Shown here in pieces: positions 1-58,869 of a stretch of 64,000 bases of DNA; within the stretch, counting starts at the first letter, position 1, and each line of letters begins with the position of its first letter. The stretch spans positions 372,001 through 436,000 of the forward strand of contig OZ237769.1 in assembly GCA_965178125.1 (NCBI GenBank), given 5' to 3'. Below the pieces are notes generated by a model, which worked only from the letters and a program-made list of their open reading frames with translations, searched no databases and was not told the origin of the DNA. Source of the DNA: Bilabrum cf. latius (taxonomy: Eukaryota). A program made the translations under genes and the position numbers.

Positions 1-1
1 C

Positions 2-1849: not shown

Positions 1850-2069
1850 GAGCATCGCGTGGGCCGCATCCAGGAGCTAGCTTGAAGGTATCTTTTATCA
1901 GAATTGTATGCATCGGAGCATACCTGTGAATGAGTCATCAGCCACTTTAATATGTTTTGAGGCAAGTGTTTATGTAGTACATCGATATTTTCAGCTCCAG
2001 ATCCCTTTGGAGGGTGAAGGAATTTGTTTAGGTGCTCAATCAGATCCGGAATGTGACGTCTTGACATGA

Positions 2070-2582: not shown

Positions 2583-3192
2583 GTTGAAGGATCTTGTTGC
2601 TCAGAGTCAAATTGTGTGGTGCGTGCAGCACTGCATGCAGTGATCCGTCACTCATCACACAACAACTTTGCCCACCGCCGGCGAATCCGGGATGAGAGTA
2701 GCAACTGCGCGTTGCTTCCGGTGACAAAAGTTAGCCGCAATCAGTTACAACGAATGATGCTTTACGATAACTCCAGTTTCCGACTGTGTCTGAGTCCCAC
2801 TGGCATTCTTTGGCATCCCACGGATCCAATGTAGGCATCGCGTGAGTCGGCAGTCAGGGCCCTGCTGAGGACATCTAGGCGGACGCAGCCCGATACCTTG
2901 TTTGAAGGTAGCGCTGGTACCTTGTTATATACAGGAAGCGCTCTGATAGGCCTATGCGTCTGCCGAATGAATCGGAAAGAACCAGCATCGAACGTTCGTG
3001 GAGTTTCACTTTTGTCTGTGGTGCGTCCGGTGCGCAGGCGCGAGCACCAGTTGCCCTAATACTCGAAACGACATCAACTGATTACAGGCACCCTACGATC
3101 TGGCTGATTCATTTGCGCCTTTTCGAAAACTCATTTTCAATTTTTGCTTCGATTCGGTGTTTAGTGACCGCGTGCTGCTAGTGCCCCGACTC

Positions 3193-5111: not shown

Positions 5112-5850
5112 ATTTGGCCAGCGAGATCCTGGGCTCGAGCGGGACGGACCGGATACTCATAGAAGCAAGTATCGCGACTACTCGAGCCGGGCGCGCACGT
5201 CGAGACTCGCCCCTGACTGGGCAGCACCTTCATCCGCACTAGAAGCCATATGACCTTACCGAGAAGAATTCAAGATGATCTATTAGTCCTGAGCTTCTTC
5301 ATCCCCGAATAAAGGCGATTGACAGGAAAAATACCAGCCTCCACTCTTCTTGGCCTGCCTCTTCCGTCATTAAGATTACGATCATAATGTCTAACGCTAC
5401 AATTCCTCTCCTGCGGTGTTGCCGCGTTCTCTCTCTTCACAGAGCCCTCCTCATCGCACAGACGCTTACCATCTCATCAGTGTTCTTGGCATTCCGGTCG
5501 TTGGCTTTGCTGCACGAAAATGTCTGATGTATCCGCATCGGGTCAAGATCTATGCTGCGAATGACCCGACTTAATCGCCCAAATGCCCAGAGTAGTAATG
5601 CCGTGTACGAGAGGAGGTCCCCAGATTTGTTTCGGTGTGCTGGGGGGAGAACCGACTGTTGATGTCAATTTTTCTGACCAAAACCGACCAGGTGGGACAA
5701 ACCTGGGGATTTCCGAACATGGGCCCCGGGGGTGCCAAAACCGACGCGAATCGGATTCTTTCGGCGAGTCGAGCAAGCATCCAGATTCAGTCTGTGTTTC
5801 GTCCAGCACGGCCGGTGACTCGCCGCATTCATCCACCATCGTTATCATCA

Positions 5851-8074: not shown

Positions 8075-8203
8075 CGAACCTTCACCTAGCTTCGCTGTGA
8101 TTGTTACGAATAGTTTGTACAAAGGTTCTGAATTGTCGATGGATTGCACTTTTACGCGACTGAGCTCGGTTTTCGCAACTTAACTGAGCTCGGGTATATT
8201 ATC

Positions 8204-11200
8204 ATGAGCTTGAGTTCCCGGGGGGGACTCAACAACTTTGACGCCTCCGTGATTCAATCATCAGAGCCGCAAACTGCAACCGCTCACGAGCATCTGCTGA
8301 TGTTAGATGGCGAAGAAACTAGTGGCAGTATCGAGGAGAAAGCACGTCAGATATACTCATTATCAAGTCCGAATTGTCCTGATGCGTCTGCTGACGTTGG
8401 AGAGACGATGCCGGATGGCGTTCTATAGTTGAATTCCTACGCAAGCAATTCAACTGGTCGAGAGGCTGGAGGTACCGGTGACACCCAGGTTCTCAAGATG
8501 CATTGTCTAGGCCCACATATGATACCTACCTATGGATTGCACCAGCAGTGGCAAGAAGCAATTTGCCGCGGCGTTCGGAGCGCATCAGCAAGCGAAACTC
8601 AAACTGCAAGCGGGCAGAAAATGAAGTTCCGAGAGTAGCGCTTTGGCCAAAAGGGCGCCAAGGATAAATCTCTTCTCGCAAAATTCCCCATTGGCGCAGA
8701 GGAGCCGCGGTTAGGGGATTTGATGCAAGCGAGCTCTCCTTCTCGCTCCATGGCGTCCATCAGTCGAGTGCTCGCCGGTCTCGCTGCGATGCGGGACGCT
8801 ACGACCAGCGAGCATGCCGATTAGGACTCAAATATTCGTTCGATGCAATTCAATGTGCCGTTTGGAGCGGCGTGGCCGGATGTTGCCGGACCCTCCGGTG
8901 GTGCCCTCACGTCACGGGATCCAGCGGACGTCGCCTGGAGCATCGAGCTGGACCGGGTCAGGTGAGAGAATTATTGCGGCAGTGAACGAGCCGTATCACC
9001 TCTGTTGAAGCAGTGCCATCGTCTTCCACTGGGGCTTGCCGTTCATGCCGTGGCATGTTATGGTACGTGTGCCGTGGCATGTACCGGCGCACAGGCGTAC
9101 CCCCAGGTGTGCATAATGGACAGGGAAAGAGGATACGTCACAAACGCATGCACCCCAATGTAGTATGCCCCGTATCTACAGTTCCATGCAATGCGCTGCA
9201 CTGCAATGCACGTCACACCTTTCACGCCTCGTCACACCATCCCCTCGCAGGTCGCTTGCCAGTCGGGAGGCAGGATTGGAAGCCGCCACTGATGCACTCG
9301 TCACACTCACTGCGGCTCTTCTGGGGGCACCGGCGGGTAAACGTGCCTCTCCTGCCGCACTTGCCGCCGCGACGATCATACCAATGCATAGACCGGGGCG
9401 GAGCGGACGCCATGCCTATGGGGCGAAGGGCATGCAGGACGCCGATGGTGCCTAGCAGGACCCAGCGAGGGTCTCCGGGTAGCGCATGGCCGGTGAATTG
9501 CTCGGCCTCTGCCTCAGCCTTATCTCCGCCTGTAGGGCCAATCATTCGTCACACGACAAGCACTCGTCACATCCCGCATCGCTCGCCAGACTAGCCGCCT
9601 GCGCCCTGCTGCTATGCAGCTCAAGCCGAGCCTCTGGCGAGGTGCGTGACGAGTGCATCGCGATGCTGCTGTGGCTGGGGAATCGCGTGCAGGATCAACA
9701 GCAACGCTCGCAGCAGGACGATTCCGAAGAGGATGGACGCAAGGGACTCAGGCTCAAGCCACGGACGGAGCACCTGCTCGTGAGAACTCCTTTTTATAGA
9801 AGGGCGGCTGGACTGCTCGATGATGATGACGATAAGGGCAATGCAGGGAGCCATGCAGGCAATTCATCGCATTGCAGCGTGCTGGATGTGCTGTTTGCTT
9901 GGAGCACGGCGACAGCGATTGACGCATGGCGGGACGGCTTTGGAGCTGAGGCAGAGCGCGGCACTGCACCCGCCGCTCTCGTTGACTCCGTGAGCGAAGC
10001 AGAGACTGGTGGGTACGGTTGGGGCACAAGCGGATCGTCGGTGGGTGTGAAGATGAAGATACCCCTGACGCACCGGCTGCAGCTCACCGCTGGACAGATC
10101 CTCGCTGGCTCGGAAATTGCTGGTATGTCCAGCTTGCAGCGGATTCGGCGGGTAGACGTTAGTGACAGTGGCAGCGGTACAGGACATTCGCCCCACTCCT
10201 TGGAGATTTCACCCCCTGGTGTACGCCATAGAGATGCAGGCGACTCTGCTGGGCTCAATCCATTCGTGTCAAGGCCACCTGCACTCCCGGCATCCAACGT
10301 CCTCTCTAGGCCGAGCATTCCTGCCGGCCAGCCAAGCTCCGGTAGCCCTTCACGCGGAAGTAGCCTGCGTGCTGAAGAGGATGGATCGGGGGATTCCCGA
10401 TCCGGGCAAGCAGCAAAAGCGGCGGAGATGTCGTCAGCTGGGCCAAGTAGTTCCGGTGCCCGCGGTGGTGCGAGCGAAATTCAACGCAGGGGAGTTGCCT
10501 GGGATTCTGCCCTCGTGCGAACGGTTGTGCCCAGCGCGGAGGCAGGCAGACCTCTGCAATGGCACGACGGAGCCACGCCACCGTGCGATGCACCCACCTC
10601 CGGAAAGACTACTTCTAGCAGTTGCAGCAGGGATGGAAAGCACCAAGCTGCGCAAGACTCGCTGGTGCTGTGCACGGCAGCCGATGGCATGATCCGGCTG
10701 ATCGGGCGCTTGCAGTCTGTTGCAGCAGGGGCAGGGGAGCTGTCGTGTCTGCACGCCGCACGCCTGCCAGTACCGCAATGCTCCGGTCATGGGTCGGAAG
10801 CTGAGCAGCAGAGCGTGCAGATCCAGCGAGTCTCGTGTGCTTCTGTCGGTCACGACGCAGTCTTTGTCGTTGCTTCCGGAGCAAAACTGCCTGCAGCATC
10901 TTCAGGCAGGAGCCTCGAGCCACGCGAGCCACGCGCTAGCCAGCCAGACCAGGGCACGCTTGACCCCTCGGAGACAAGCAAGATCACGCAGTGGTGGTCC
11001 ATGAGCGTGTGGCGGGTCGCTGGTGACACATCCACCGCCGCTAGCCTGGAGCTGGTGGCGAGCTACGAGGCCACGGTTAGCAGAATCGGCGGGTCGGGAC
11101 AGATCGACCTGGTGCCCAAAGAAAATAGCACTAAAGCCGCCCACAATTAGGCTGAGGAAGCGACCGGGTCTGGCGCTGGTGCCCCCGTTGTTTCGAAGGA

Positions 11201-14200
11201 AACACGCGTGCTTCAGCTGGCGCTGCTGGCTGTGTTCAGGACATCGTGCCAGGAGTGGAGAAAGGCTGCCGCGTCTGCCGGATCGATGCCTATTGCACCT
11301 GTTGCGGTGTCGCAGGACACTTGGGGCACACAGGTGCAGCGCACTGCGTTGCGAGGAGCCCTCCTGTTGTCGGCTCCTACGCTGGTTGCCTTTGTCGGCA
11401 CCCTTAGCGCAAGTTGTGGCGGATCGCCTGTGGGAGACGGTACGGAGCCAGGCGGAATCCTGGTGTAGGCTACTGTACCAACTGCTGAGGAGGCTGCAGC
11501 CGGTGCCGTGAGATGCCACGCGTTCGGCGTGGGCAGCATGCGCCGATTAGGCGTAGCAGCTGCAGGCAATTCGTCCATTGCGACAAGCACTCGCGGCAGA
11601 CGCAGTGCTAAATCTAGTTCAAGCCGTGCCACCGTGCACAGCGTGGCTGGCCCTGGGGAGGTGTCGGCTAAGAGAGAGGTGTTCGTGCGGCTGCACTAGG
11701 TGATGCCCCCGGTACCCTTCGCCGTGCCTGGCAGGCTCCGCGGTCTACGGCTCAGGGTGCGATCCGCGACCGACGTGACTCTTTCCGTCTCAGTCATGGA
11801 GCCTTGCGACGAAATGCACTCGTCACATGGCGCCGGCGGCAAGCCGTCCACCAGACTACGCAGACGAGCGGGAGCTCTTTGCACGCAGACGTGCGTGGCC
11901 AGCGCCGACCCGACCGGACGATTTCTCCAGACGGTCCCCCTGCGCGAGGTGAGCGTCCGACCGGGGGACGTGCTTCGAGTGACGGTGCAGCGGCCGGAGA
12001 AAGGCGCCTCTGCTTCACCTGCTGCTGGCTCTGGAGGGCCTCCTGCTCTGCCCTGTGCTGAGTTTGCAGTTGCATCGATCGATGCGTTGCAGTAGGCCTG
12101 CGGCTTCGTTCAGCCGCGGACAGGCGGAGCTTCAGCCGACAACAACAGCGGCCTTGACAGCAGGGAACAAGGGAGCGGCGGAAACTCGGCGGGTCGCGAC
12201 CACCGCGTTACACTGGTGGCCAACCTAGAACCCCCTTCGCTCGGATACTTCCAGGGCGTGCGCCCACCGCCCGCCGATGCTACTGGGGTCCATGACAGCC
12301 CGGGCTCGAGTTCTACGGCATCAGGCGCCGGTGCCAACTCAGGAGGCATCTTTGCGAGTGATGCAAGCGCCGGGAATGTGATTCCGCACCACCTTATGTT
12401 CCGTGTGGCTGAGCACGGTACGACTGCGGGACCCACGTCGAGCGCCTTCCCTTCTCCCATGATCAGCAGCAGCGGAGCAACGAGTGACGTGGATGAGGGG
12501 CGGTCTGTCTCCGCCGCTGCTGAGGTGGTGCCGGTTCTTAGCTCGTTCGGCACGTCTGACGAATCGACTGATATTGGCGAGGAATCCGCTGCGTAGCGAG
12601 AGTCGGCATCGGGTAGTGTTACCAACTTGCAGCACGTGTCTATTATTTACAGGGCCAACAGGCCGGTACCAGACGTTCAGGTCGTGCTAGGTGCACCTGC
12701 TCCGTCGACGGATGGTGCCAATGGAGGACAAGGGGCGTGCTTCATGTACGACGGCAGCTCCGGCGCTCTGTCCTCTGTCCGGCCGTGGCTGGGCTAGTCC
12801 ACCAGTGGATTGGGCCATACTGCGGTGACCGATTAGGGGGTGTCGTTGGCATGGGCGGTTGAGGTGACGTGCCAGCGGGCTGGATCTGATGGAAGCAGTG
12901 AGATTTCTGAGTAGCAGGGGCATGACCAACTTAGCGTGCTATTGGGTTCGTGTCGGGCACAGGGAGGTGGGTATGGAGGCATAGTCAGCGCCGAAAACAC
13001 CTGGTCTTTGAGAGCAAGACTGGAGGCAAGCGAATCCCTTAGCGTCTTCTCTCCTAGCCTGCCAGTTGATTTTATTGCCAGCCCGGCCGATGCAAGTTGT
13101 GGTCACAGGCCGATCACAAGGAATTCGGCTGATGCGACAGCGAGTGCGCTTCGTCATTTGCGGCAGCAGCGCACGCTGACGAAGCGAGATGGCCATCGGT
13201 TGTTTGGATGGGATGGACCAGCCGCAGGGCGCAGCGAAACAGGCTCAGACTCGGATTCTGAATCAGATTCTGAGCCTGGGTCGGGTGCCGAAGCCGTCTC
13301 ATCACTTCGGTCTCCCAGGGCTACTGCAGATGGGCATCTCATTGCACCAGAAGTGTCTGTCCTCTAGGCGTGTAGCCGGCTGCTAGCACTGTCAGGACCT
13401 ATGAACTCGCGTGCGTCGGCGACCGATCATGTCAACTCTGCACCCGACCGGCAGGCGGAAGGGGCGGCGAGCCTCCCAGCAGGGGACATTCCGGAGAAAT
13501 CCATCTGGAGAGCCGCTGGGAATGAAGATGAAGACCGGTCTCAGCGCGGTGTCGACGCGATGCTGGCCGGGCAGGTTGCCGCTTGCAACGCCGCCGCGGT
13601 TGACGACTTCGTGGTTGCCCTGCAGCGGTGCTTTGAGCTGGTTGGGCGCATCGCCGCCCTGCGTGCATCCACGGTCCCGGGACAGCAAAATGCGTGGAGG
13701 ACCCACGTCCTGCAGCTGCAGTCTTTGCTCCGTTCGGTCGTGCCTCCTCTAGAGGGTTCGAGCGGTTGGGCGAGCCGGACGGTGCTTGCACCCAGCAAAC
13801 AAGCCATGGAAGCCATCGGCAGCATGCTTGTACCGGCAGCTGTCTCGAGCAGCAGTGCGCATCCACCGAAACCCCGGATTCATGCTGCGCTCGAGTTTCT
13901 TTTTGCAAGCGGCATGCAAAAAAGAGTCGCATCCCGTGTGCTAGCCACTGCGGGGATCCAGTCAGCCGCACCAGCAGCACGCAAGGGCGATCGGAAGGCA
14001 GCAGAACGTGCCCTAGTCGTGACCACCGTACGATCGTGCCTGCTGCCGCTGCTCACTAGCGTATCGATGGCTGCCGCAAGGTGCACTGTATTGCACGCCG
14101 GGGACAGGAGCGACGCCTGGGCGGCGTCTTGGCTGGGCCCTGCCGCTGACGCTGCCCTGAGGCAATGCCTGCCTGTGCTTGCCAGGGCGCCTGCAGACAG

Positions 14201-20200: not shown

Positions 20201-23200
20201 CGCACTGCAGGCCAGTGTGCGCGGCGCCCTGGTTCCGCAAGGGCAGGGCGATGAAGCGGAAGAACGTGCGTGGCGGCTTGGCCAGCCGCCCTCTTTGAGT
20301 CTCGGGAGCTCGCAGTAGCCCGGCAATGCATTGCACCCAACCGGACCCGGGGCAGGATCCACCGGTGGGTTGAACCTTTCTCTCCTGCCCAGTCCCTCGG
20401 ACGGCATGGCCGATTTTGGGTCACCGCGCACGACCCGTTCAGGGGGCGGCATGGCTGATGGCGACGCGTCGAGCCGAACGATGATGTAGGGGCAAGAAAT
20501 GCCGCAGGGCGTGCTAGCGCAGTCGAGGCGTGCGAGGGGCTTCGGACTGACTCTGCAGGACATGTCAGCGCATGCCCTTGACAGCCCGCTACCCATCGGT
20601 GCGGAACCGGCCGGGTCGGTTGGCAGCGGGTCGCGAGTCACAGGGTCGTAGACAGGGCCCGTTGCGTCAGACCACGTCAGCGGTTCAGCACACCCCGGTC
20701 GACCCTCCATCGCTCGTTCCGTGGGTGGCCCTCCGGTGGTATCCCAGGGAACAACGGGGGCCGATGCTCGAGCCGATCTCGACAGCTTGGACGGGGTGGG
20801 CAGCCGCGGAGTCGCCCCTCTCGCGGTCGGGCTGCACAGGGTTGGCAGCGACGTGTCGTCGATGCGAAGTCCCGACGGATCCACCGGTGGACCAGCCGAC
20901 GGAGCGACGATTCTGACATTTGGAACTGTAGAGGAGGAGGAGGACGGAAGGGACATGGGCAGCATGGGGTCCCCTGTGGGCTAGGGCGGGTCGGGATTCC
21001 GAAGCACGAGCGGTGACGGTCCCGGGCATGGCGGCAGCACCGTTGGCGACAGGTCAGTGGGCGAGGCAGGAGACACTCGTCACATCGAAGAGCTGCTCGA
21101 GGGTGGTCGCCCTGCCGCCATTCGATCCTCACGCAGGGATCGAAACCGGAGCAACCACTCGCCGCAGTCACCAAGCTCACCCGACCCGTCGGTGGGCAGA
21201 GCTGCGAAGTGCCTTGGCGAAGGAGACAATGATGGCGCGGCGCTGGCCTGGTCGTAGAGCCTGCTGCTGAAGAACGGCTTCACGTGGCTGCACGATGCGC
21301 GAGATGCAACGACCTTTGACGAGTTTCACAGCGAGAGCGACCTGGCCGCTGCTCCTAGCCAGGGAACAACGGGCCAGGGAACAGCAGATGGTGCTTTCAA
21401 GAGTGCACGCGATCCGATTTTCGAGGAATCGGGCACTTCCACCGTGTCTCCCGGCCTGCCGTCCCGCAGCCCCGCCTCTGCATCAGCACTCCCTGCTGAG
21501 CTAGAGGACTGGGTGGCACGCGAGGAGGAGCAGTTATTCTGCGAGGCTATGATCAAGCTGGCTTCAGGCGAAAAGAGGAAGCAGATCGAGACAATCGCCC
21601 CGCTCGCGTACCCCAGGCTGTTCTCTGCAAGCGACGGGGGCGATGATGATGCCGGTAGAGGAGGGGCAGCAGCAAGTGGCGCCGAGGGCGTCCCACCGGC
21701 GGTCATGAAGCGGTCAAAATCAGAGGGTTCGGGCAGGGCAGGAGCCAAAGGTGCTGGACCGTCCGGCGAACCATCCATCGCGGCGTGGGCTGCTGCAATG
21801 CAATGCATTGCTCGTCACTCCGACGGCGCGATCCTTCAGAAGACCGGGTGGAAGAACAAGCGATGCAACGCAGCCGAGCGGGCTGCAGCGGCGGCTATCC
21901 TACGACACGCAGGTCTTGTGCCGCTTGCGATTCAGTGCTTCCGGGAGTATAGGTCGTTCTGCCGATCGAGAAATAGAGGTGCTGACGGAGCTACTTCTGC
22001 GGTGCCTTCTCACCCGCCTGCTGCCATCCTGCAGGTGTTCAAATCGGCACGGAGGCTCCGGTCCTGGATGCGGCTCGTCAAGCAGCAGTGTGGCGACAAG
22101 AAAACCATCGACAAGTTGTCGGTGGGCGTGCAGGCGCGGGCTGCCCTCCTCCTCGAGGTGACGCCTTGCAGCGCAGCGACCCTTCATTCGCAATCCAGGG
22201 ATGGGTCATCGCCCGAGGCATCGCGGTTGAGCCCATCCGTGGAGCGATCCGTGGTGGCCTTCGTGACATCACACGGGCTGGACACCGCCAAACTGTGCCT
22301 GCTCGTGGCACGGGATCACGCGGCGCGAGCTCAGGTAGAGCGGTAGCAGCAGTGGCTTGAAGAGGCTAGCCTGCTGGCATGCGAGGCCGCTGCAGCTGCT
22401 GCCTGCGCTGCGCTGCGGCCGCAGCCAGTCTTCTCTGGCAACACCGAGGATTCGACGTTGAATCCGGAGCCGAATAGTGCTGCGATGACCCCTCGTCATG
22501 CAAGTGTCGATGCCGGTCTGCATTCAGTGCAACGGGCGTTCAATGCACTGCGTGGAGCTGCGCTTCCAGCCCGTGTCCCGCCATCCCGCGGCAGTGCTTC
22601 CATTGCGATAGCTAGCGCAAATGCCTTGTATGCATTGGCCAGCGCTGTGCCACGGAGTGAGGGAACCAGACGTGGGACCGACACGGCACTGTTTCAGGCT
22701 GGTGGGCCGCGCGGTAGGATTTATCTTCGTGCAGTGATGCAAGGGCAACTGCAGCGCACGGTGCTGCACTTGCTGGCTTCATTCTCGAACGAGCCGAGCC
22801 ATGGTGCGCTGCCAGTGGTGGCTATGCTTCTACGGGGCGGCTTGGGCTCGATGGATACTCCTGCATCGTCCGCTTCCAGCGCTATCCAAGGCCACCCTGG
22901 GTCAGGATATCTCGCTCAGAATTCATCTCAGTCTCTGGCACAGGAAGAGCTCATTCATGCAGCACTTGCTGCTATCTTTCAGCTGGCGGGAAGGGCCGTT
23001 CAGCCTGCAACAGGTGCATTGCGCGATGGTGCGGGACCTCTGATGCTGGAGTCTGCCGGACCGTCCGGCCAAAGCAACTCTCAGACGGAGGCCGGGCCCC
23101 CGTCAACCGTCATCTCTCTGTTTCAGTCCCCTGCACCAAAGGGTCAGACCAAGCGGGGCATCAGTGTCGCGGGCTTTGTGCCTGGTGAAGCGAGCACAGC

Positions 23201-29200: not shown

Positions 29201-32200
29201 TGCGACGCCGGCGGAGCTGTTCTAGATGCAGCACCTTGATCAACTCCTGCTGAGCTGCAACGTCGCCACGAGCCAGCTGCTAGAGGCCAAGGAGACCTAC
29301 CGGCGGGCGCTGGGTGAAGCCCTGGAGCGGCCAGGCGAGGCAGCTAGTGCGGCAGCATCAGCTGCCACCAGCAGCGACCTGGTGCCTCGGCAGGTGCAGC
29401 AACAGCTGTCGATGGCAGCAGCACTTGTGGTCAACGCCAGGCATGAGCTGCAGAGAGAGGTGGCCGAAGTGGCGTGGTTGAGGGACCTGGTGGATGACTG
29501 CGTCGCTGCCGCCGCATCAGAAGCAGCGACAGTCGTGGTGGCGCCGCCGCTGCAGAGCATGGACGAGTGTGACGAGTTCATGAAGCTTGAGAACGACAAC
29601 ATGTCCGAGGGGTCTGCGGACAAACGGGTGCTGCATGTGCTCACTCGTCGGATCCTTGCAGCGCTGGGGATCGCTTGGTCGGGTGTCCCTACCGTGGTTC
29701 TGGACGGCATAGGGACATGCGCGCTGGAGCGCGTGTGGACAGATCTCGATGCGTGGTTTGAGTCACTAGATGAAGGGCACCCCGTTGATGCCTTGATGCC
29801 GCTGCAAGGCGCATGGGCAAAGGGGGTGGTGCTAAGCAGGGCTCCCGTGCCCTTCAGGCGATGGGTGCGAGTAGCTTTCGACGGCCTATCCAACGAACAC
29901 TGGCGGTGGTGCGGGTGGGAAGGCGGGAGCACCCCAGACGGCAATCCACTCGTCAGGTGGGAACTGGATGAAATACGGCCCCTGGGGTGGGTTACTGGCC
30001 AGCTGCGCATCTACCAGAGCCCCGTGGTGGCACGCCGGCAGGGCAGACGGATCGCGGCTGGCCAGCGACTGCTGCAGCTGACAAACGGGGTTACCGTGTA
30101 CGACGACGAACGTTCCATGCGGATGGCCTGGGCTCCTTATGTGACGAGTGCGGAGCGCGGGAGCGCCGACCGGCAGCGCGCTAACGCGCGCGACCCTGTG
30201 TGGTGCAGGACCTGCGGCCTCGGATACGTCGAAGTTAGAGCAGAGGCAGGCTGCCTCAGCCAGGGGCAGAGAGACCTCTTCGGTGTGGAGCGGATCGCTG
30301 ACCGGCCCAGCACCGCTGATGGTCCCGTGGTCGCAGCAGAGGACGAGCAGCTGCCTTCCCTTCCCGTCGAGTATCCTTGGTCAAACGCAGAGAGCGCGTC
30401 GGACGACAACTAGGGCGCATCTGGGATCCGTCGCAGCACCGTCGGCTCGCAGCTGGAGTCGGCTCGCCTAGCTTCCTCTTCGATGATCTTGCGGGCACCG
30501 ACGGGAGCAATCCGAGCCGTGCCACCGGAGGGGTCGAGCCCTGGGATCGTGCCAGGTGCAGGTGCAGGTGCTGGTGCAGATGCAGGTGCAGGTAGCTCCG
30601 ATATGAATGGATCGAGCAATACAACCAATGCCAATGATTAGGGAATGGCTACTGGGCATGGCATTTATCCTGGTGCTGCCAGTGCATCGACTAGAGACGA
30701 TGATTCCGGGTTCACGACAGCGCTGCGAATCCGTGGCAGTGAGCTCGCAACCGTGCCACGATGTGACGTCATCAGCGTATGCGTGCAACGCGAGTGTGCC
30801 GACTACCACTTGCACGCCTGGCGGGATCAGCTGCGTCCTGGCAGCAGAGTAGACTGCTTTGACAGCCACAGCAAGTGGTACGAAGGCGTCATCATCTCTG
30901 GCGAGCCGGCCGACGGTCACGGGAGGGAGGCAAGTCCGAGAGTCAGGGTAAGGTTCTTAGGGTGGTCTCCAGAGAGCAACCCAGGGAGGTATGACGAATG
31001 GCTGAGCCGGACGAGCCAGCGCCTTTTGCCACCCGGAACGAAAATCCACCCATGGCGGCGCGTGCAAGTGGGTGACGAGATCGAGGTGAGAGACGATCGC
31101 ACGGTGGATAACACGGAGGTCCTTGCGGTGGATCCCGTCCGTAGAAGGGTGCAAGTCAGCGGACAGGAGCACTGGGCGCACCTAGGGAATCCATTCGTGC
31201 TGGCAGCCTATGCCACGCACAAGCGCATGCAGCCGTGGAGCGACATTGACATGGAATTCGACAGCGCGGCGCGGCAGGTCCCACAGACTAGGCTCATCCC
31301 CCCTTCACGAATGCTAGACGGCGTGTACAGGCATGTCAGGCGAATGCACCGCACGGCCGCGGCCCAGGCGGCCGCAGCTGCAGCAGCACCAGGGCAAGCC
31401 GGGCCAGATTTAGCTGCCTCGGCCTATGCAACAGAAGGCAACGGGGGCGACAAAGCGCCAGGCGGGGCCGCTGGGTCCCCCGCTGGGCCAGGAGCGGCAG
31501 GGAACAACCGAACCAGGGCCAGAGCCTCGGTTGAGCAGGCCATCATCGAAGTGGCCGAGGCAGAAACAAGAGCCATGTCTGTGCTGGTGTCAGCGTGCGG
31601 CCTGTCAGTGAGGAAGGCTGCTGGGGGTGAGGAGCCTCTCAGGAGAATCCTTCGAGGCATTTTGCTGGTGTGCGGCCTGAGACCTTCCCAGGCAAGCCCT
31701 GGGGTCGTGAGAGATGCGGTTGCAACATCGCTCCAGTGCAGTGCATCCGATCCGTTCGTGCCCGCCGACCTGTCGTTCGTATCACGGCGACGAGCCGGCT
31801 CGGGTGGGGGCACCGGCCGTAGAGCGCCAGCCTAGTGCACCACCCCTGGCGGGGTGGGCCTTGCCGCGACCTCAGGCAAGCGTCCCTCTTCCGCCGTCGA
31901 TCGCGCAAGGCGCACTGCCTCTTCGCGCAGGCCGCAGAGCGCCACATGGAGGAGGAAGGGGAGGAGCAGGCTCGGCTCTGACGGCGACAAGCAAGCAGCT
32001 GGTGCAAATGCCGGTTCTGCAATGCCTCCGTCATCATCAACGGCAGCTGCAGGTTCTCGTAGTAGCCTTGCCCAAGTCATCATGCCACCTGGACCGCGCC
32101 TCAGCGAGTCCTCCCGTGCTCTGCAGCAATCCCAGGCCAGGCGACAGGAGCGAAATGCCGCAGGAGTCAATGCATCTGGCATGCAAGCCACTGCTGCCCA

Positions 32201-35137
32201 GTCGCCCGCTCGAACACCAGATGGACGAAGTTCCTCAATGCGGACGAGCACGGACCTTGCTGGCGAGCCCGGGGTACCAACCGGCGGTCGCAGGTCAGCA
32301 GATGCGCCGCCAGGCAATTCACGTGGCCAAAGCGGCGACGACTCGGATCTGGATCAGTTCGAGCACGTGGCGCCCCTGCGCAGCTCTGGCGGTGACGCAG
32401 CCGGCACTGGCTCGGCCAAACGGAACCGCCGTCGCCCGACGTCCGCCCCGGCCTATTCGCCCCACAGCGCGGCAGCGAGAGAGAGGAGGAAAAAGCGGGA
32501 GCAGGATGCGATTGCGAGACTGGCGGCCGCAGAGGAGAATGAGGGGGGTTCACGAGAGAATATCGAGGCGGGCGGTGCTTCCACTCGTCACACTAATGAG
32601 AATGAGACCGAGCATGGCGGCGCAGTCGATGCAACAGCAAGCCTCGATCGCGAAGACAGCATGGAGGGACAGCCTGGTGCGCCCGCTGCCAGGATACAGC
32701 GGCAGCACCTACCCTCAGAGACCAAAGAGGATGACGAGGAGCATCAGGTGTCCAAAGAGCCGGAGATCGACGACGAGGCCCATGGCCCGATAGAGGGCTA
32801 GGATGATCAGGCGGTCGAACGCGGCCCAGCGAGAGCCAGGGCGCGTTCGGACGGAACTGATGAGATGCTGCAAGGGGACAGCAGCTTGCTGTTAGACGGG
32901 TAGGGGTACAATCGCCAGGCAAGCAGGCGCCAGTCAGGCCAGTCGGGTCGTGCCCCCAGCCGTGAGCTAGGTCCCGAACAGCTCTCGCAGGTCATCGCAG
33001 GCATCACTGCCAGCCTTTCCGCCTCTGTGCCGCATGCCGCTGGGACAATCTCTGATGCCAGTGAGGGTATCAGTCGAATTGCAGATAGTCTGCTCGCGTG
33101 GACAAGGGTGGAGGCTATGATGGGCCTGTGCGTGGCAGGATCAGCAGCAGATGCCGCCAAGAAGAAACGTGGCCAGCGAGCTGATGATTCGCAGTCGGTC
33201 AGCTGGCTGCGTCGGCTTGCAGACCGTGCAGGCACTAACCTGGCAGGCATGCACCATCGAGAGGGCGCGATGCAAAGCGGTTACGGTGGAGTTGTGCGGT
33301 CTCGGGAAGGTCCGATCGACGTGCCGGATGTGGCCGGATTCGACGCAGACGTTGGGTATTTGCTGGCTGACCCACCCGTGCAGACGCTGCGCCCCATTGC
33401 GCTCCCGCTAGGCAGGCTCATTAGGAGGATCACTTGCAAGAGCCCCCGCCGGGCCGTTGACCTGCCTCGGCCAGCGGCTGAAATCACCTTCAGCACCTGG
33501 ATCCGCATCCCGGCAGCCGAGACGGGCCCGGTCTTCCAGGCGATGGGGAGTGCTGGTGGTGGCAACGAGTCCCGCTCTGTGATGAGTGCGACCAGTGAGG
33601 CCTCAAGGATTGGCAGACTGGCCGCAAGCGGCCTGGCGGGCGCGGCTCAGTCTCCCAGCTGGTCCGGTGTCCTGTTCCGACAGGGCCCCATGCGGAAGCT
33701 GCAGCACCCCCTGCCCGCCGGGACCCTAGTCGAGGGCAGGTACGGGCAGGTGACCTGGTACCCCGGCCGTGTAGACAACTACAACGATGATGGCACGTAC
33801 GACATCCTGTACGAAGATGGGGACAGGTCGCCCAGGCTGAACGAGGAGAGGGTTAGGCTGCGGCAGTCCGCCGCTCAAAGCCTCACACTGAGCCTATCTG
33901 CGAGCGGAACCGTCGTAGCTGCACTGATTCCAGACCTGAAGCGCGCCAATGACAGCAGCCACGGGGCTCGTCCGCCCCCACCGGACCTCTTTGTTTCTTC
34001 GCCCCAGTCTTTGCACCCGGGGCGGTGGACCCACGTTGCTCTGGTGGCGGGGCATGGCCGTCTGGAGCTGTGGGTCGACGGCGTGCGGGAGAGCGCTGCG
34101 ACAGGCCCCGTGTTCTGCAGGAGTCCAAGGGTGGATGTAATCCGACAGAGGGGGGAGCTTGCCGCGTGTGGCGGGGCCGTGAGCCCGGGCACAGACGCAG
34201 AGCGCGTGTACCTTCGAAACACGCAGCTGTACATGCGCCCCTTGAATCGCGATGAGATCCTCCTCGACCTTGCTGGCAGGGCCGCGCAGCCCCCCGGAGA
34301 GGACGAGAACGAGCACGCCGAGGTGAGCCTGCGGCACCCAGGCGATCCGGCTTCGTCCAGCCACCGGGGTAGCAGCGCAGGCGCGGGCGATGACGCAGCC
34401 AGCGATGCAGGTCGCGAGTCTCCGGGCGATGGAGAGCAGGCTGACGAGCGACCACCCCCGGAGGACAATGACGACGTTGAGTGGGCCAGCGACGAGGAGC
34501 AGCTGGAAGGCGATGAGGAGGAAGAGGGCGAATCGCGGAACGGGCGCTTCATCGCGATTGTTTCGAATACAAACGAGGACGAAGGCCTTGAAGTGCTCGC
34601 ACCAGACGAGACGCATCGGGGATGCGGCGACGATCTCGATAACGACCCGCTAGCAAGCACCGATGCATCGACGGGTGTCCCGATGCTGCCCAAGAGCATC
34701 GATCCCGGGTCCGAGGGCGACGAGACGGCACGCAGCCTCGCTGCCACGCCTGTGCCCACGGACTCCGCTGGTCTAACTAGAACGAACCGACCGTTCAGTT
34801 CGTCTCCGCTTCGCTCGCCCCCTCGCGACCCCAACCGTGAAGCTGCCGACGGGAGACAGCTGGATCGGAGCCCTGGCGGGCTCGCCAGCATGCAAGGGGG
34901 CGTGTTTGAGGAAATCTCCGACTCGGAGGGGGCTGCAGGCGCAGGCGCGCTGTTGAGTGGCAGGCAAGATACTATGTCGCTGCAGCCCCAGACGAGACTA
35001 GAAGCCTCAGGCGAAGTAGGGCGAGGACAAGGAGTGGGAGCGCGCACCCGTCGCACGAGGCGCGGGGTGCTTCCCCCCGACATCGAGGTGGACTCGGACG
35101 GCAGCCAAGAGAGCCCCACCAATGACCATGATCAGGT

Positions 35138-35195
<58 letters not shown>

Positions 35196-41100: not shown

Positions 41101-44100
41101 CCAGCGATGCAGCCGAGTCAGCGGTGCACTAGGCCGTCGTTCCCACGGCTGGTGGTGGCGTGCAATCGGTTGCAAAGCACAGCTGGGAGCTGCCAGTCGG
41201 CAGCATTGAGTGGTCCGAGGCCAAGCTTGCGGAACTGGCGGGCGCCGCGAGCGACACCGCGGTCGGCCAGATGACCCGCCAGATCCTCGACATGGTGCCT
41301 CCCAGGCGGCTGAGGCAGCCCAGGCGCCCATGGCAGATTGTGTTCTCTGGGGAGGGCGGCATCGATGCGGGCGGCTTGTTCTCTGAGGCCATGAGCATCG
41401 TATCGGACGAGCTCAGGACTGGACGCTCGCCGGTGCTGTCTCCCACCCGAAACAACGCGCAGTCGGTTGGCACGCAGCGGGATGCTTTCGTGCCTACGAT
41501 CGCATTCGCTCTGCCCTTCGTGGCGGGCGGATACCAAAAGACCGGGCCCAAAACGAACAAGAGCGAGGCGGCAGCGAGCAGCAACGATTTAGTGGGACTG
41601 GTGGCAGCGTGGGCCATGCAACCATCCGCTGAATCCGATTCCACGGTGCCCGAACAGTGCCTGGCCGCCGCACACAGCACGCCGACCGTGCAGCGCACCG
41701 GAACTATGACGTCACTCCCCTCGTGGCGAGGCACCCGCCCCGCCTCCTCAGGAAGCTCACGCCGTCGCAAGGGCGGCAAAGGAAAGCGACCGGTATCTGG
41801 TGGCGGCAGTCGGCGCAAGGGAGTCACGTACGAAGGTGGTCAAAGACAGGGAAGACGGGTCGGCTCCACCGCGGCACAAAGGCCCGCTTGCATGGAGACT
41901 CTTCCACTGCAACGATGGATCGCTGGTCTGCCACTGCTTGCCAGCGACCCTGGCTGCATCGACCTGCTGAGTCGTGCCGCCCGGTAGGCCTCTCAGCCGA
42001 GTAGCCAGCCAGGGCCAGGCACGGCACCGCTGGCTGATCGAGTGCACCAGGCCATACGGCGAAGGGGTAGAGGATCGGGTACTCGGGCTGGTCCCGCTGA
42101 TGCTGACGCAGGGTTGTCATTGCTTAGCCCGGCCGCGCGCGTGCTGCCAACGGGCAATGGGGACGTCCACCTGGCACCAGAGCCGCAGTGCATGCGTGAA
42201 GGACGACGAATGGCTGCGGCACAGCTCGAACTGATCGGCGTGCTGATGGGAGTGGGCGTGCGGGTTGGTTTCTTGCTGCCGCTTGCCTTCCCCGTGGCGT
42301 TTTGGAAGGCGCTTGCCGGCGATTCAGTCGGTCTGTCAGACTTGGAGGGCATGGACGTGGCCTTTGCGCGAAGGATTAGGGAGATTTCACTCGCGGCCAG
42401 CGCTGCAGAACGTGCCACCAGACGCGCAGAGCAGCTGGCAGTTGTTGGAGCAGACACTGGTCATCATGCCAGCCAGCTCTTTGCAGGGGGGGCGCAGGAC
42501 AAGGCCGCCACGGCGGCAGCTCCCCTCCCCCTCGCAGCTGTTGTTGATGCCGCGGCAGCGGCGCGTGCCGCACTGGATCGGCTGGATGCCGTGCTGTACG
42601 ACCAGACCTTCAGCGTGCCGTCATCCGTGGCTGGAGCGACGCTGGAGTTGCTGCCAGGGGGTTCCAAGGTCAATGTGGGCAGGCATCCGGCAGAGGTGCT
42701 TCTGTTCTGCCGGTTGGCAGTGAGAGCACGAGCAGCCGAGCTCGCCTGGGGTGTGCGGTGCATCGCTCGAGGCCTCGCTTCCATCCTGCCCTCGGCTCCC
42801 CTGCGGCTGCTGCCCTGGAGGGAGTTGCGTGCACTTATCTGCGGCGAGGACCGCATGGACGTTGCTCTGCTTCGGCGGCACACCCGCACGCAAGGCATGG
42901 ATCGGCACGGCCACCTGGTAGACTGGTTCTTCGACGTGCTGAAGGGCTTGCCGCCCTCGCGCCAATCCCGGGTACTTCGCTTCATCTGGGCGCGGGACCG
43001 ACTCCCGCCCAACGATGCAGGCTTTGCCATGCCGTTTACGATCATGCGTGACGGCCGGGATAGCCCCGACGGTGCCCTGCCCAGCGCGCACACGTGCACC
43101 TTCCAGCTCGACCTGCCCACATACTCCTCGCCCGCCCTCATGAGGCGGCAGTTGCTCGCAGCGGCTGACAACTGCGTGGGGTACGACCTCGATGGCGGCG
43201 CGCAGGGAGTGGAGGACGGCGTGGATGACGACGACCAGGACGAGGACGAGAATGAGGACGTTGAGGAAGAAGGGGCGGAACAGACCGGAAGTGGTCCTGC
43301 AGAGACTGGCCCCGACGAGGCTCCGGATGATGCGAGGTCACAGGCATCCGATTCCCCACAGGACGACGAGGATGATCAGAACGATGATAACAATGCGAAT
43401 GAACCCGCCGGTGGTGGATCTATCGACCAGCGTACTCATCACCACACCACCCGAAGAGGGCAGCGCTCACTGCAGAGCGACATGCTCAGCCTCCTTGTCG
43501 AGCTGGATGCGTATTCAGTTCTGCGCGAGCCTGTGCCTGACGGTGATCGTGAGAACGACAACGAGCGGCAGGGTGCTGCGCAGGGTCAGGGTCAAGGTGG
43601 CGGTGGAAACGGTTCGTCTTCGTCCGCTGCTGCTGCATTCACGGGCGGCAGCGCAAGTGCAGCGGCGGGGCAGCAGGACCAAGGGTCAGCAGCTGCAGCT
43701 GCATCATCCGGTGCAGCAGCTGCGGCCGGGGGCTCAGATGCAGGTGCGGCAAGTGGTGCCGGTGCAGAGGTAGAGGCGTCAGAGCCCTAGGCCGCAGAAT
43801 AGGCCACCCCTGCAGCTCGTCTCGCCGCGGCTCGCGCTGTCCACGCTGTCATCGATTCTGTGCCCGAGGACGGCGGGGACATCGATGTGGCCGCAATCGC
43901 GGCGGAAGCTGCCCTCGCCGCTGCGCAGGCGGCGGCAGAGCGCCAGGCGATCCACTCGTCACACTCAGACATGGGTGTGGCGTCAGTCGGGGCGGCGGCT
44001 GCGGCCGCACTCGCGGCCACCTCCGCTGCGTCTGGAGGGGCACCGGGCGGTCCTGCCGGTGTGGCCTCGTCTGGCGCTGGTGCGGGCGGAGCCGCCGCCG

Positions 44101-46610
44101 GTGCCGGTGCCGGTGACGACATCATCGAAGGCCTTAGTCTGAGGCAGGGGGGCCGGCGACCAGAGAGGCCCGGCGCCTCCAATGCAGGGGGTGTGCGTGA
44201 GGCGCCCAACACAGAGGACGTGTCGGTGCGGGACGATTTCGTCGACGATGGCGACGTGTCAGACGGGGATGCGACTGGGCGGGATCAGGGTGACGAGCAC
44301 GAGTCTGGCTTCATGGACCGGATGCTTCGGTACAGGCAGCAGCTAGGTGGCAGCGGGTTTCCCGCGATGCTGCACATGCAGGGCGATGGCGGCGGCATGA
44401 TGGATTTCTCCATGGCGTTAGAGTATGCGAGAGCGGCGGGCGCTGGGTCCAGGAACGCCAGGCTAACAGCGTCCCAGCTCACGCAGCACCTAGCCACAAT
44501 CGTCCCCGGTCTTCGGGCACCTGCAACCCGCGACTCTGCTAGGCGAAGGCACGCAGGTGCTTCTGCGGGGTCTCCTGCGGGGGTCCTGGGCCGGGGCCGC
44601 GGGAGGGGACAGACGGCGACGCAGCAGATGCAGACGCACGGCAGTCAGACGGGGGAGCCGACGTCGTCCACAGATCGACTCGGAATCGAAGTGAGGGTGG
44701 GCCGGGGCGCTGCAGGTGGGAACAGTCTCAGCTCCCGACGTGCTCGGCCGGCTGCCAGCGGGCAGCAGCAGCTGGATCTTGGGGGTGGCTAGAGCGGCGG
44801 CGCCAGGTGGGCGCGACCGCGAGGCGGTTCGCCAGCTTCCCCTGGGGTTCGCCGAAGCTTCGGTCCCCTCCGCACCTCTCAGGGGACGAGGGCCTCACCC
44901 GCTAGTGCCGGTGCCGGGCCAATCAACACGGGCGCGGCGGGCGGCGCAAGGACAGGCGTGGGCTATTCCAGGGCAGGCCGCCAGGCCCTGGCCAATCCCC
45001 TGCGGCTATCTCGGGCGGGCAGCCACCGGGACCCTCAGGGAACAAGGGAGGAGCGGCTCGCAGCTTGGTAGCGATCTGCGAGCGCCAGCGGAACCTCCCG
45101 CGGACTCGACGGCGCGGCGCCGGATGCCGCTGGAGGTACTCGCCGCCGACCATTCGGCTATTACGAGGACCAGCTGGAGGGCATGCAACAGGAAAGAGAC
45201 AGCGGTAATCCAGCCGGCCAATCCTCTCTAGAGTCGCAGTGGCAGGTGGTGGGCAGGCGACTCTTGTCAAGCGAGGAGGGTGCCTCAGCCGGGTTCGATC
45301 CCGGGAGGGGCAGGGGTGCCGCTGCGGGCGCGTACGGCTACGGTCCAGGATCCCCGGGTTCGAGCCCCGCTGCGGCTGCTTCCCGTCGGCGAGGCAGAGG
45401 CGGGGGCATCGGCAGAGGCGGCCTCTCCTCGTCGTAGGCCATGAGGCCGCCGCGGTACGGGGATGGTTCCGCAGGACGCGCGGCGCCAGGCGACGGCGCA
45501 TGGCATCGGACCGTGGGAGACCCCCAGGTCTTTCGGGGCCACCGATCCGGAATCGATTCGGAATCGACCGGAGTGGAGTCAGACAGGTCGTTGGTGGCAG
45601 AGCGCAGGCGAGGTCGGCTCTCGGAGATGCTGCAGCTCATGGGACACACTGCGGATTTCGGGACAGACCTGGAGGCCAGCGATGAAGATGAAGAGGAAGA
45701 GGAGAATAGGGGAGGGGAGGACGGCGCCGATTCGATCGGACGAGAGCTGTACAGGCAAGGGGAGATAGAACGCATGGAGTTTGACGCTGATGTGGAGCAC
45801 CACATTCTGCCTGACATGGAGGTGGGCAGCGGAGACGAAGAGGAAGATGAAAATGAAGATGGAGGAGAGGACGGTATTGGCGGCGGCGGAGCATCGGACG
45901 ACGAGGACAATGAAGATTTTGGAAGCGGGGGAGCACCCCTGCCTGATTTCGGCGCTGGCGCTGGCGCACGTGCAGGTGCAGGTGCAGTCGGCCGCGGGCG
46001 GCGGCACGCGGATGAGCATGGTGGTCAAAGTGGCCACAGCCTCGGTTTTTCGTACCACCGGCACGAGGACGAAGACGAAGATGAAGACGGGGATGGATCG
46101 GACGGGTTCGTCGGCGTTGACGACTTGTTTGAAGATGAAGATCACGAGGATGGTGGCCTTGCTCTCCAGGAGGGCTCCATGGGCAGGGGTGGGGTCGGAG
46201 CCCCGGCCCTGGGGCTGGGACAGGCGTTCGGGGAGGAGGACGATGAGGAAGAGGAAGAGGAAGAGGATGGGCACTGGGAGGTGGTAGAGCCGCTGGGGTC
46301 CAATGGCCGCGTGCCGCGCGGGGGGGGTGCGTTTGATGGCGAGGGTGATGACGTGGGTGGTGGCGTAATGGAGTTGCAGCAAGGCAGCGACGAGGAGGAG
46401 GGGGAGGGGGATGGGCTAGGGGACGAGCGCGACGATTAGGGTGAGGGAGCAGATGGTGGTAATGGAGCGCTCGCTTTCGGCTTCGAGCCGCCGCCCGGCG
46501 CCGGGGCAGACCACGCTCCCGATGAGTAGGAGCAATTTGATGATGCCGGAGATAATAGCCTCGGCGGATCAGGCTCTGATGTGGAAGAATACCAAGAATG
46601 GTCCGATTGA
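8204..46610 (+). CDS. Giant HERC-like HECT E3 ubiquitin ligase, ~12,705 aa, join(8204..8961,9251..46610)
   Basis: All plus-strand ORFs of one frame from 9165 to 46439 end in TAG. I read the gaps between them and found no in-frame TAA/TGA before the TGA at 46608-46610 (about 70 TAG in total). The upstream exon is open from ATG 8204 (alternative ATGs 8723, 8750) to a phase-2 intron. HECT motifs: WQIVFSGEGGIDAGGLFSE, LELIGVLMGVGVR, FWKALAG, LELLPGG, ELRALICG, WFFDVL, VLRFIWARDRLP, LPSAHTCTFQLDLPTYSS. Confidence 0.85.
8962..9250 (+). other. GT-AG intron (phase 2) of the giant HECT gene
   Basis: ag|GTGAGA ... cccctcgcag|g restores AGG (Arg) and links the exon-1 frame to the 37-kb frame. Confidence 0.75.
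14257..14322 (+). repeat. 33-bp in-frame tandem duplication (TSAPSSGAGS x2)
   Basis: tgacgagtgcaccgagcagcggtgcagggagtg occurs twice in tandem. Confidence 0.9.
14403..14432 (+). repeat. Poly-Gln tract (CAG)8-TAG-CAG
   Basis: Read directly, in frame with the giant CDS. Confidence 0.95.
17799..17837 (+). repeat. (TCCGGT)n hexamer microsatellite encoding SGSGSG
   Basis: Read directly. Confidence 0.9.
21860..22350 (+). other. Helical region resembling the conserved non-RCC1 scaffold segment of HERC1/HERC2-type ligases
   Basis: AERAAAAAILRHAGL...PPAAILQVFKSARRLRSWMRLVKQQ...VQARAALLLEVTP...SVVAFV...LDTAKL...ARAQV parallels, by eye, the HERC2-type 'LLKH...P..V..V......ERLRFL....P...IAEF...VD.EK......RAE.R' pattern. 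Confidence 0.5.
23484..24120 (+). other. DOC/APC10-like domain within the giant HECT protein
   Basis: SSWQ...MTLTIP...VTSIDV...PKEVQV...VLQVRLGVLRNHHGGNSSQLRAVRVL resembles the APC10 C-terminal 'lqi.i..NhqnG.dt.vr.i.v' motif. Three TAG codons (23619, 23670, 23766) lie inside it. Confidence 0.5.
30819..31220 (+). other. Tandem Royal-family (MBT/Tudor-knot/chromo-barrel-like) domains
   Basis: WRDQLRPGSRVDCFDSHSKWYEGVI...VRVRFLGWS...YDEWLSRTSQRLLPPGT, then a second WRRVQVGDEIEVRD unit. Confidence 0.65.
33480..34260 (+). other. Concanavalin-A/LamG-like jelly-roll domain with a Tudor domain (33711-33860) inserted
   Basis: LamG motifs ITFSTWI, LHPGRWTHVALV...LELWVDG, LRNTQLYMRPLNRDEI; Tudor LPAGTLVEGRYGQVTWYPGRVDNYNDDGTYDILYEDGD. 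Confidence 0.65.
35139..35195 (+). repeat. (CAGGGA)9 microsatellite encoding QG repeats
   Basis: Read directly. Confidence 0.9.
41300..43176 (+). other. HECT catalytic domain; catalytic Cys codon at 43095-43097
   Basis: LPSAHTC motif, with N- and C-lobe motifs in canonical order. Confidence 0.9.
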
Positions 46611-46736
46611 GCTGCGGCAGCTGGTTGCAACAACAATTGTGATTTAGTTTCCTTTTTAACGTGCCATTATACGATCACTTGCCTTTGTAGATATTATAGT
46701 GATTTAGTCGATCCCCATGGAACCACTACGTCTGGA

Positions 46737-47428
46737 TCACCTACTATCTGTGAGTTCTGTATTGTTTCGTACGTACTCTGTGGAGAATCCCTGGGTGTCT
46801 TCACTGATTCGACTTCCATTCAAGTTAACAGCAACCAATTTTGGAAGTGCACTTTTTACCCGGTACGCTGCTACGATTGCCGCAGGACCTCGAGAATCAT
46901 GCGTCCGCTTCAAATCTACCGTATAGACCGCCTAGAGTGGATGCTGGCGCGTACTAGGCCTATGTTCCAGAATGGTAGGGCCGCCCCATCGAGCGACCAA
47001 TGAGGTTGTCCGATGGACTGCAGGGGGCCGGAGAGCCTGGCATTGATCCCGATCCTAACAGCCAAGCCCGCCGAATAGCGAAATAGAAGCAAGTATCATC
47101 TGTTTGGAGCCAGGAAATCACGCTGAAGCGCCCCATTTTCCCCTCTGGTATCAACGAAGAGTCTCGGTCCGTCCTCGTCTACGATGAGGCTGGCATCTGC
47201 GAGTGCCTATCGACGGAAGAAAGTGAGCTGCCCTTGACAATATCCTGGTCTGCGTGTTTGCTCTATTAATTGATTTGATTTGTCCGACTGATCCTTCGAG
47301 GCTCGTCGTCTGCTGCTGGTTGACGTGCCGTGGCTGGCTCGGTGGCCGTGAGCCTCGAACCCTGCCAGCCTTCGAAAGGATTGCTGGCAGGCGAAGCCGC
47401 CGCCTCGGAGCATGGCACATAGCACCAT
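46737..47428 (-). CDS. Possible small minus-strand gene(s): two consecutive ORFs (47428-47096 and 47099-46737), open only if TAG is sense
   Basis: 110 and 120 aa, both ending in TGA and overlapping at ATGA; no recognisable domain. Confidence 0.25.

Positions 47429-58820: not shown

Positions 58821-58869
<49 letters not shown>

Follow-up and report, generated by a model that had tools for sequence, protein, structure and literature searches.

A TAG-rich open frame of Bilabrum cf. latius probably encodes a 12,705-residue HECT-type ubiquitin ligase with a long tail beyond its catalytic domain

We analyzed a 64,000-nt stretch of Bilabrum cf. latius DNA (contig OZ237769.1 of assembly GCA_965178125.1, forward-strand positions 372,001 to 436,000; hereafter the window, numbered from its first letter), in which six open reading frames (ORFs) were followed. 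The largest of these belongs to what is probably one real two-exon gene, read with TAG as Gln and ending with TGA, that encodes a HECT-type ubiquitin ligase of 12,705 aa (~1.3 MDa). When TAG is read as a sense codon, the plus strand is occupied from 9117 to 46610 by a single open frame of 12,497 codons, with 66 TAG, no TAA and one TGA, which is the terminal codon (46608-46610). Over the same stretch the remaining five frames each carry 98-245 TGA, 13-37 TAA and 46-103 TAG. The open frame is far beyond chance, because TAA and TGA are excluded from it yet are frequent in the other five frames; and since TAG, unlike the other two, is nearly as frequent within this frame as outside it, we conclude that TAG alone is a sense codon here. 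Under the standard code the longest piece of the giant frame is 937 aa, and the spliced coding sequence falls into 70 TAG-bounded pieces, 45 of them at least 60 aa and 33 at least 100 aa long. An earlier account of this stretch, made from its letters and called here the sequence-only reading, had described a frame from 9251 to 46610 broken by TAG only and a giant HECT ligase gene invisible under the standard code; both descriptions hold, and its estimate that standard annotation would yield about 40 fragments was a fair one.

The intron-exon structure was examined with Logan contigs of four coded runs, placed on positions 1-20,000 of the window. Run X1 has a flat depth of ~21 and is probably source DNA; run X5 is labelled 'RNA? 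(probably DNA)' and may contain both DNA and RNA; X6 and X8 are RNA by guess. Four GT..AG joints with long flanks were found in X5 (3267>3387, 5989>6106, 6455>6551, which is also present in X6, and 8958>9248, cut +3), and X1 shows none of the joints of X5 in this interval. X5 contains transcript-derived sequence, because spliced contigs are present in it. The joint at 8958>9248 connects the two exons of the giant gene across an intron (Table 1) that has stops in all three frames. Exon 1 begins at the earliest ATG downstream of an in-frame TGA at 8129; it lacks TAA and TGA, and its coding log-likelihood ratio is +25.3 in its frame versus -61.7 and -44.3. The spliced coding sequence of 38,118 nt specifies 12,705 aa plus a stop (~1,304 kDa) and includes 69 TAG. 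The exon start at 9251, the exon length and the product of ~12,700 aa given by the sequence-only reading were all recovered with this spliced contig. Its claim of a single exon held over 9719-19584, where unspliced X5 contigs lie inside exon 2 (9719-12574, 12568-14286, 14963-17586 and 17809-19584, with the gaps among them falling at repeats). When 100-codon windows were scored with a codon table trained on the neighboring gene, frame 0 came out best in 99.1% of them. G+C content (GC) is 0.48-0.56 in the four supported introns and 0.64 in the ORF, where just three 90-nt windows fall below 0.50. Exon 2 is likely uninterrupted over its full length, as is demonstrated over about a quarter of it.

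Two further points concern these assemblies and the coding score. GCA/CAG-type repeats at ~1459-1496, 7785-7811, 14286-14443 and 15085-15105 interrupt the assembly of every one of the four runs and give rise, in the contig tables, to spurious long-range joints linking genes that lie far apart. A hidden in-frame intron was considered at a dip in coding score at 41,580-42,129 and was rejected, its GC of 0.65-0.69 being exon-like and unlike that of the supported introns.

The product of exon 2 contains a HECT domain with a score far above the Pfam cutoff (Table 1), and it aligns to homologues in two segments, 10929-11018 and 11206-11571. Every one of the 60 PDB matches listed is a HECT ligase, and HECTD3 ranks first (9r85_A, E 1.7e-23, versus ~1e-14 for SMURF2, AREL1 and HUWE1). 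In the C-lobe alignments Cys11535 falls on the Cys of 'TC' in HECTD3 and of 'HTC' in AREL1, and the end motif 'NCV..D.D' also aligns with that of HECTD3. These data support the assignment to HECT ligases made in the sequence-only reading. As family membership suggests, E2 would deliver ubiquitin onto Cys11535, from where it would pass to the substrate. Human HECTD3 (PDB 9r85) is accordingly the best solved relative of the C-lobe, matching it in both catalytic Cys and end motif, but its solved chain is 864 residues long, whereas the giant ligase has ~11,000 residues upstream of HECT. HECTD3 carries a DOC domain, which was not found in the giant ligase; the latter has, in addition, Tudor/Agenet and LamG modules, an N-lobe insert and a long tail.

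This tail is the feature in which the protein departs from the usual HECT layout. To our knowledge, the HECT domain ends the protein in human HECT ligases; here the domain is internal, and 1,138 aa lie downstream of 'NCVGYDLD'. The sequence-only reading had closed its architecture with "then HECT", and while the domain itself stands, its internal position and the tail had been missed. Both ends of the tail contain 28-35 D/E per 100 residues. In the nearest relative, P0162 is 90.5% identical to aa 11786-12096 and is on the same contig as that relative's HECT fragments, whose identity (85-91%) is at the same level. P0001, with a HECT domain 80% identical, keeps the frame for 253 aa beyond HECT; its tail is 35% identical and contains two conserved islands. 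The Cafeteria roenbergensis protein (P0004) has 241 aa beyond its HECT domain. The tail appears to be coding, because it is so similar in the nearest relative, retains frame and islands in P0001 and has a counterpart in Cafeteria.

To place the protein among its relatives, homologues of the HECT region were collected, and the best 150 of 6,132 matches were examined. These fall into three groups, fragments from close relatives, the Cafeteria roenbergensis protein and metagenomic proteins; the Cafeteria protein is the nearest named relative among the 150, at 42% identity. More distant HECT matches, for example P0018, carry RCC1/RLD. Two proteins, P0153 (7,060 aa) and P0160 (4,380 aa), are collinear with the giant protein and share with it the order X domain, tandem Tudor, Agenet/LamG, HECT, with island 1 present in P0153 only. 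The metagenome loci L002-L004 have the same island order, and the islands are 37-50% identical across the orthologues. The search for orthologues in related protists, which the sequence-only reading had put forward as a check, was in this way successful. The longest relatives have 6,906 aa (among the best 150 matches) and 7,060 aa (the cluster member P0153), and the giant protein is ~1.8 times as long. Judging from these alignments, family and architecture are conserved, and the giant member appears to have been expanded mostly by linkers and by an N-terminal part of ~4,300 aa. The in-frame TAG codons are distributed unevenly along this protein: they are ~3 times denser in the 5′ third, where 38 of the 66 lie within 9453-21255, than in 21256-46610, which holds the remainder. 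The TAG-dense third coincides with the portion for which the orthologues show no detectable match.

Upstream of the HECT domain, conserved islands are separated by low-complexity Ala/Gly/Ser/Arg-rich stretches, which would be expanded flexible linkers. One island, the 'X' domain, had no match in Pfam or Atlas. The tandem Tudor region gave weak matches in Pfam (MBT 16.6 bits, Agenet 13.2 bits), none in a single-sequence phmmer search of the PDB, the PHF20L1 Tudor alone at E ~0.4 when a 3-sequence profile was compared with the PDB, and Tudor_3/Agenet/MBT clusters of the Atlas at 0.88, a lead at most. An AlphaFold2 model of the region, built from a 7-sequence alignment, has a mean predicted local distance difference test score (pLDDT) of 69.1, with values of 61-89 over residues 1-145; a model of a 611-aa piece, from a 3-sequence alignment, was discarded (mean pLDDT 35.7). 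Foldseek placed the AGDP1 tandem Agenet (E 9e-6) and the L3MBTL3 MBT at the top of 67 matches with E<=1e-3; Agenet, MBT and Tudor entries predominate among the listed matches, and the best include the readers SGF29, SETDB1 and UHRF1. By VIA, module 1 corresponds to PHF20L1 Tudor1 (Z 8.5, root-mean-square deviation 2.2 A, 62 aligned residues, 32% identity) and module 2 to the PHF19/PHF1 Tudor (Z 7.0-7.3), and the predicted model has the SH3-like five-stranded barrel of the royal family in both (Z 8.5 and 7.3). The first tandem module of L003 is above the Pfam cutoff, as Chromo_MORC2_6th (34.1 bits). In module 1, all 7 sequences compared have the same five aromatic or acidic residues, W33, W62, Y71, D72 and E73 (numbered as in the modelled piece), which are compatible with a putative cage for methyl marks.

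A second Tudor-type module lies in a LamG region. Laminin_G_3 (PF13385) scores 32.0 bits there on a 371-aa piece (E 1.6e-7, cutoff 27.6) and 23.8 bits on 4,500-aa pieces, and it reaches 34.9 bits in L004. The Agenet/Tudor module itself matched PTM_DIR17_Tudor at 19.8 bits (E 7e-4), and its counterpart in L003 matched Agenet at 31.1 bits (E 3.4e-7, cutoff 27); among its weak PDB matches, four of the top six are Tudor domains. Together, these data bear out much of the architecture that had been sketched by eye, namely the tandem MBT/Tudor-like pair, for which the support is the predicted fold, the LamG domain and the Tudor-type module that accompanies it. The absence of recognized RCC1 repeats was likewise confirmed, as a Pfam search of the 9117-46607 frame (12,497 residues) gave no match to RCC1/RLD at E<=0.01, so that the RCC1-like domain characteristic of the HERC subfamily was not detected in this protein. 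Two other elements of the sketch were not supported. A DOC/APC10-like domain was sought in Pfam and had no match at E<=0.01 in the whole protein, at E<=1 in eight sub-pieces, or in the orthologues, and a divergent DOC fold may be present. The proposed HERC-like helical scaffold was not recovered either: the first 4,500 aa gave no match in Pfam and no credible one among solved structures in the PDB, and the nearest solved HECT is that of HECTD3, not of a HERC. Beyond those named above, no Pfam family was detected. Based on the predicted folds, we speculate that substrates would be recruited via the Tudor/Agenet and LamG modules, possibly by methyl-lysine or methyl-arginine marks, so that ubiquitination by this enzyme may be directed by methylation, as the sequence-only reading suggested.

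Table 1. Features of the giant ligase gene and its predicted product (window positions; aa, residues of the product)
Feature	Position	Strand	Details
Exon 1	8204..8961	+	ATG 8204; 252 codons + 2 bases; 3 in-frame TAG
Intron	8962..9250	+	289 nt; GTGAGA...CAG; GC 0.557; X5 joint 8958>9248 (cut +3), side 255; joint not in DNA run X1
Exon 2	9251..46610	+	37,360 nt; 66 in-frame TAG; terminal TGA 46608-46610
Island 1	21513..22166	+	aa 4341-4558; 29.5% identity to P0153 aa 1957-2181, E 1.6e-5, collinear
'X' domain	29691..30011	+	aa 7067-7173; 34-45% identity to P0153, P0160, L002, L004
Tandem Tudor-type modules	30810..31340	+	aa 7440-7616; predicted fold
LamG (concanavalin-like) region	33390..34352	+	limits approximate; Laminin_G_3 match 33990-34259
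Agenet/Tudor-type module	33666..33926	+	aa 8392-8478; in LamG region, upstream of Laminin_G_3 match
HECT domain	41277..43193	+	aa 10929-11567; PF00632 152.2 bits, E 3.4e-44, cutoff 23.9
N-lobe insert	41547-42107	+	~190 aa; R/K/G-rich; exon-like GC 0.65-0.69
Catalytic Cys codon	43095..43097	+	aa 11535, in 'AHTC'
Post-HECT tail	43194..46607	+	1,138 aa; acidic at both ends, G/A/S- and R-rich middle

The comparisons also indicate how TAG is decoded: in the nuclear code it reads as Gln, and genes end with TGA. A close relative contributes four protein fragments, all encoded on one 22-kb contig and 81-85% identical to the giant protein; they span aa 2327-4815 and cover nine TAG sites. At six of these the relative has Q, the others being E, A and a gap, against a Gln background of 4.9%. 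Seven ends of relatives' fragments could be placed on the giant gene, three at CAG/CAA Gln codons, three at TAG codons and one at Ser, and we infer that these ends correspond to TAG codons. L001, from a more distant relative, has 19 TAG in its frame and neither TAA nor TGA over all 6,456 nt of its DNA. One of these TAG falls in the motif WRRVQVGDE, at a position where all 6 of the other sequences compared, three TAG-free orthologues among them, have Gln. A further homologue search gave matches that spanned no TAG site. Within the window, the five other ORFs have 29 TAG, 0 TAA and 64 CAA, and all six together comprise 19,054 codons with 98 in-frame TAG and 0 TAA. Each of the six ends (1849, 5111, 8074, 46610, 61690 and 63447) is a TGA, none being a TAG or TAA, and TGA may be the main or sole stop codon of the organism. 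The locus accordingly agrees with a code in which UAG alone is reassigned to Gln (NCBI table 15 type): TAG is a sense codon read as Gln and TAA is not a sense codon. The TAG-sense code is common to the closer metagenomic relatives L001 and L005 (19 and 6 in-frame TAG), whereas the frames of L002, L003 and L004, which are ~50% identical in the Tudor region and have a GC of 0.60-0.79, are TAG-free; the code change is therefore bracketed within the family.

Some observations weigh against this decoding. At 43% identity, comparison with L001 and L005 was uninformative and gives no Gln signal, as six TAG sites of the giant gene face T, T, R, V, A and G, and of 20 TAG sites in L001/L005 three face Gln of the giant protein. 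This, and the failure to find a tRNA gene in the 64-kb window, can be cited for a reading in which TAG specifies another amino acid, or is ambiguous and serves as a context-dependent stop. We consider such a reading very improbable, given the Q at most of the TAG sites covered in the close relative, the TAG of a relative that falls on an invariant Gln, and the use of TGA at every ORF end in the window, with zero ORFs finishing at TAG. The interpretation of one giant protein also has points that count against it. Transcript-type contigs were examined on 1-20,000, and for 37,000-46,999 the support is an X5 word share of 0.97 (sampled words). Contigs cannot reveal transcript ends, so internal starts or polyadenylation sites remain compatible with them. 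The N-terminal ~4,300 aa have no detectable similarity to P0153 or P0160 and no known domain, ~14% of residues pass a crude 'ordered-like' filter, and the Foldseek TM-scores of the tandem Tudor are low (0.24-0.36). The open frame might, then, give rise to several products through internal starts, polyadenylation or frame-preserving introns, such as a low-complexity protein from the N-terminal part and, from the C-terminal part, a ligase of 5,000-6,000 aa resembling the orthologues. The sizes of P0153 and P0160, which share nothing detectable with the first ~4,300 aa, the coverage of the transcript-type contigs and the denser TAG before 21,255 would all suit such a division. On the other side are the lack of any TAA or TGA over 12,705 codons, the coding-type usage in nearly all windows and the GC that separates the ORF from the RNA-supported introns; moreover, protein identity in the N-terminal part itself is 81-85% in a relative, all of it on a single 22-kb contig, and unspliced X5 contigs run through 9719-19584. 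Multiple products, whether in general or divided in this particular manner, therefore strike us as improbable.

For the tail, the corresponding question is whether it belongs to the working enzyme. An extension of 1,138 aa might interfere with ligation if it were neither removed nor accommodated, and the tail could be cleaved off by a protease or skipped via an alternative 3′ end, the active ligase ending near 'GYDLDGG'. The orthologues P0153 and P0160 do finish, without a tail, <=10 residues past 'YDLDGG', and human HECT ligases end with the domain. HERC2 is described as having the sole elongated tail among them, of 42 aa (PMC11577452). The evidence that the tail is coding is, in addition, still compatible with post-translational cleavage. 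However, the tail is stop-free in frame for 1,138 codons, its islands are retained even where tail identity has fallen to 35%, the Cafeteria protein likewise extends beyond its HECT domain, and 97% of the 37,000-46,999 words are present in X5. We regard a tail outside the working enzyme as rather unlikely, and favor one that is part of the ligase. By analogy with HERC2, and speculatively, the tail would modulate the catalytic lobe or act as a docking platform: in the same paper (PMC11577452) the HERC2 tail, T4793-H4834, which is the one described parallel that we found, is said to be acidic, disordered and stabilizing for the C-lobe. Human HERC2 (4,834 aa) thus resembles the protein studied here in being a giant HECT ligase with an acidic tail past the C-lobe, but the tails differ greatly in length (42 versus 1,138 aa), and none of the other HERC2 domains (three RCC1-like, DOC, ZZ, CPH and cyt-b5) was detected in the giant ligase with Pfam.

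Other known systems share single features with this gene. In a survey of huge eukaryotic proteins (PMC11573180), E3 ligases are given as the commonest architecture above 5,000 aa, and their size is attributed to expansion of the flexible stretches that separate the domains; the giant ligase resembles those surveyed there in its small islands amid expanded low-complexity linkers and differs in being legible only with TAG as a sense codon. It is an extreme, TAG-hidden variant of a class already known to be common in protists. The royal-family readers PHF20L1 (Tudor1), AGDP1/ADCP1 (tandem Agenet) and L3MBTL (MBT) have the fold that is predicted for its modules but, unlike it, are chromatin readers without a ligase domain. 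As for the code, the metamonad Iotanema spirale, in what PMC5304391 states of its codon usage, likewise has UAG for Gln and does not use UAA as a sense codon; its main stop, however, is UAA, in contrast to the TGA found at 6 of 6 ORF ends here, and the nearest named relative of the giant ligase, Cafeteria roenbergensis, is a stramenopile. A limited literature search found no description of TAG recoding in stramenopiles or bicosoecids, nor of a stramenopile-like lineage with a UAG-only Gln code. It is possible, and we propose it tentatively, that this HECT ligase is the largest yet seen and the first example of a protist clade with an internal HECT domain and a conserved tail of ~1,100 residues, acidic at both ends, that controls ubiquitin transfer, in a stramenopile-like lineage that acquired a UAG-only Gln code independently.

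These findings bear on annotation, on mechanism and on code evolution. The standard code splits this gene into dozens of fragments, and the largest genes of TAG-recoded protists are lost unless the code is recognized first. With its HECT domain inside the chain and a long conserved tail behind it, the protein does not fit the usual picture of the C-lobe as an obligatory protein end, and it offers a natural test of the role of C-terminal residues in ubiquitin ligation. A HECT ligase with predicted Tudor/Agenet folds suggests that methyl marks and ubiquitination may be directly linked in organisms other than animals and plants. The code change, for its part, is bracketed as recent, in a lineage for which we found no such change described.

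The neighboring features of the window were also inspected. Upstream, an ORF at 6494-8074 is in the same reading frame as the giant gene, and 129 nt (8075-8203) lie between its TGA and ATG 8204; this interval is either a very compact intergenic region or one of overlapping untranslated regions. The introns of the upstream genes are short GT..AG introns (3268-3386, 119 nt; 5990-6105, 116 nt; ~6456-6550, 95 nt) with a GC of 0.48-0.53, all backed by spliced X5 contigs and one also by X6. Downstream, an ORF at 49052-61690 (+) encodes 4,212 aa with 19 in-frame TAG, a PLU-1 match (86 bits) and PHD fingers, and its domain content looks like that of a KDM5/JARID1-type histone demethylase. No JmjC, JmjN or ARID was found in this ORF, and these domains may lie in upstream exons, at 46.7-49 kb. 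A further ORF, at 62398-63447 (+), weakly resembles the importin-beta N-terminal domain (20.7 bits versus a cutoff of 21) and probably runs past the end of the window.

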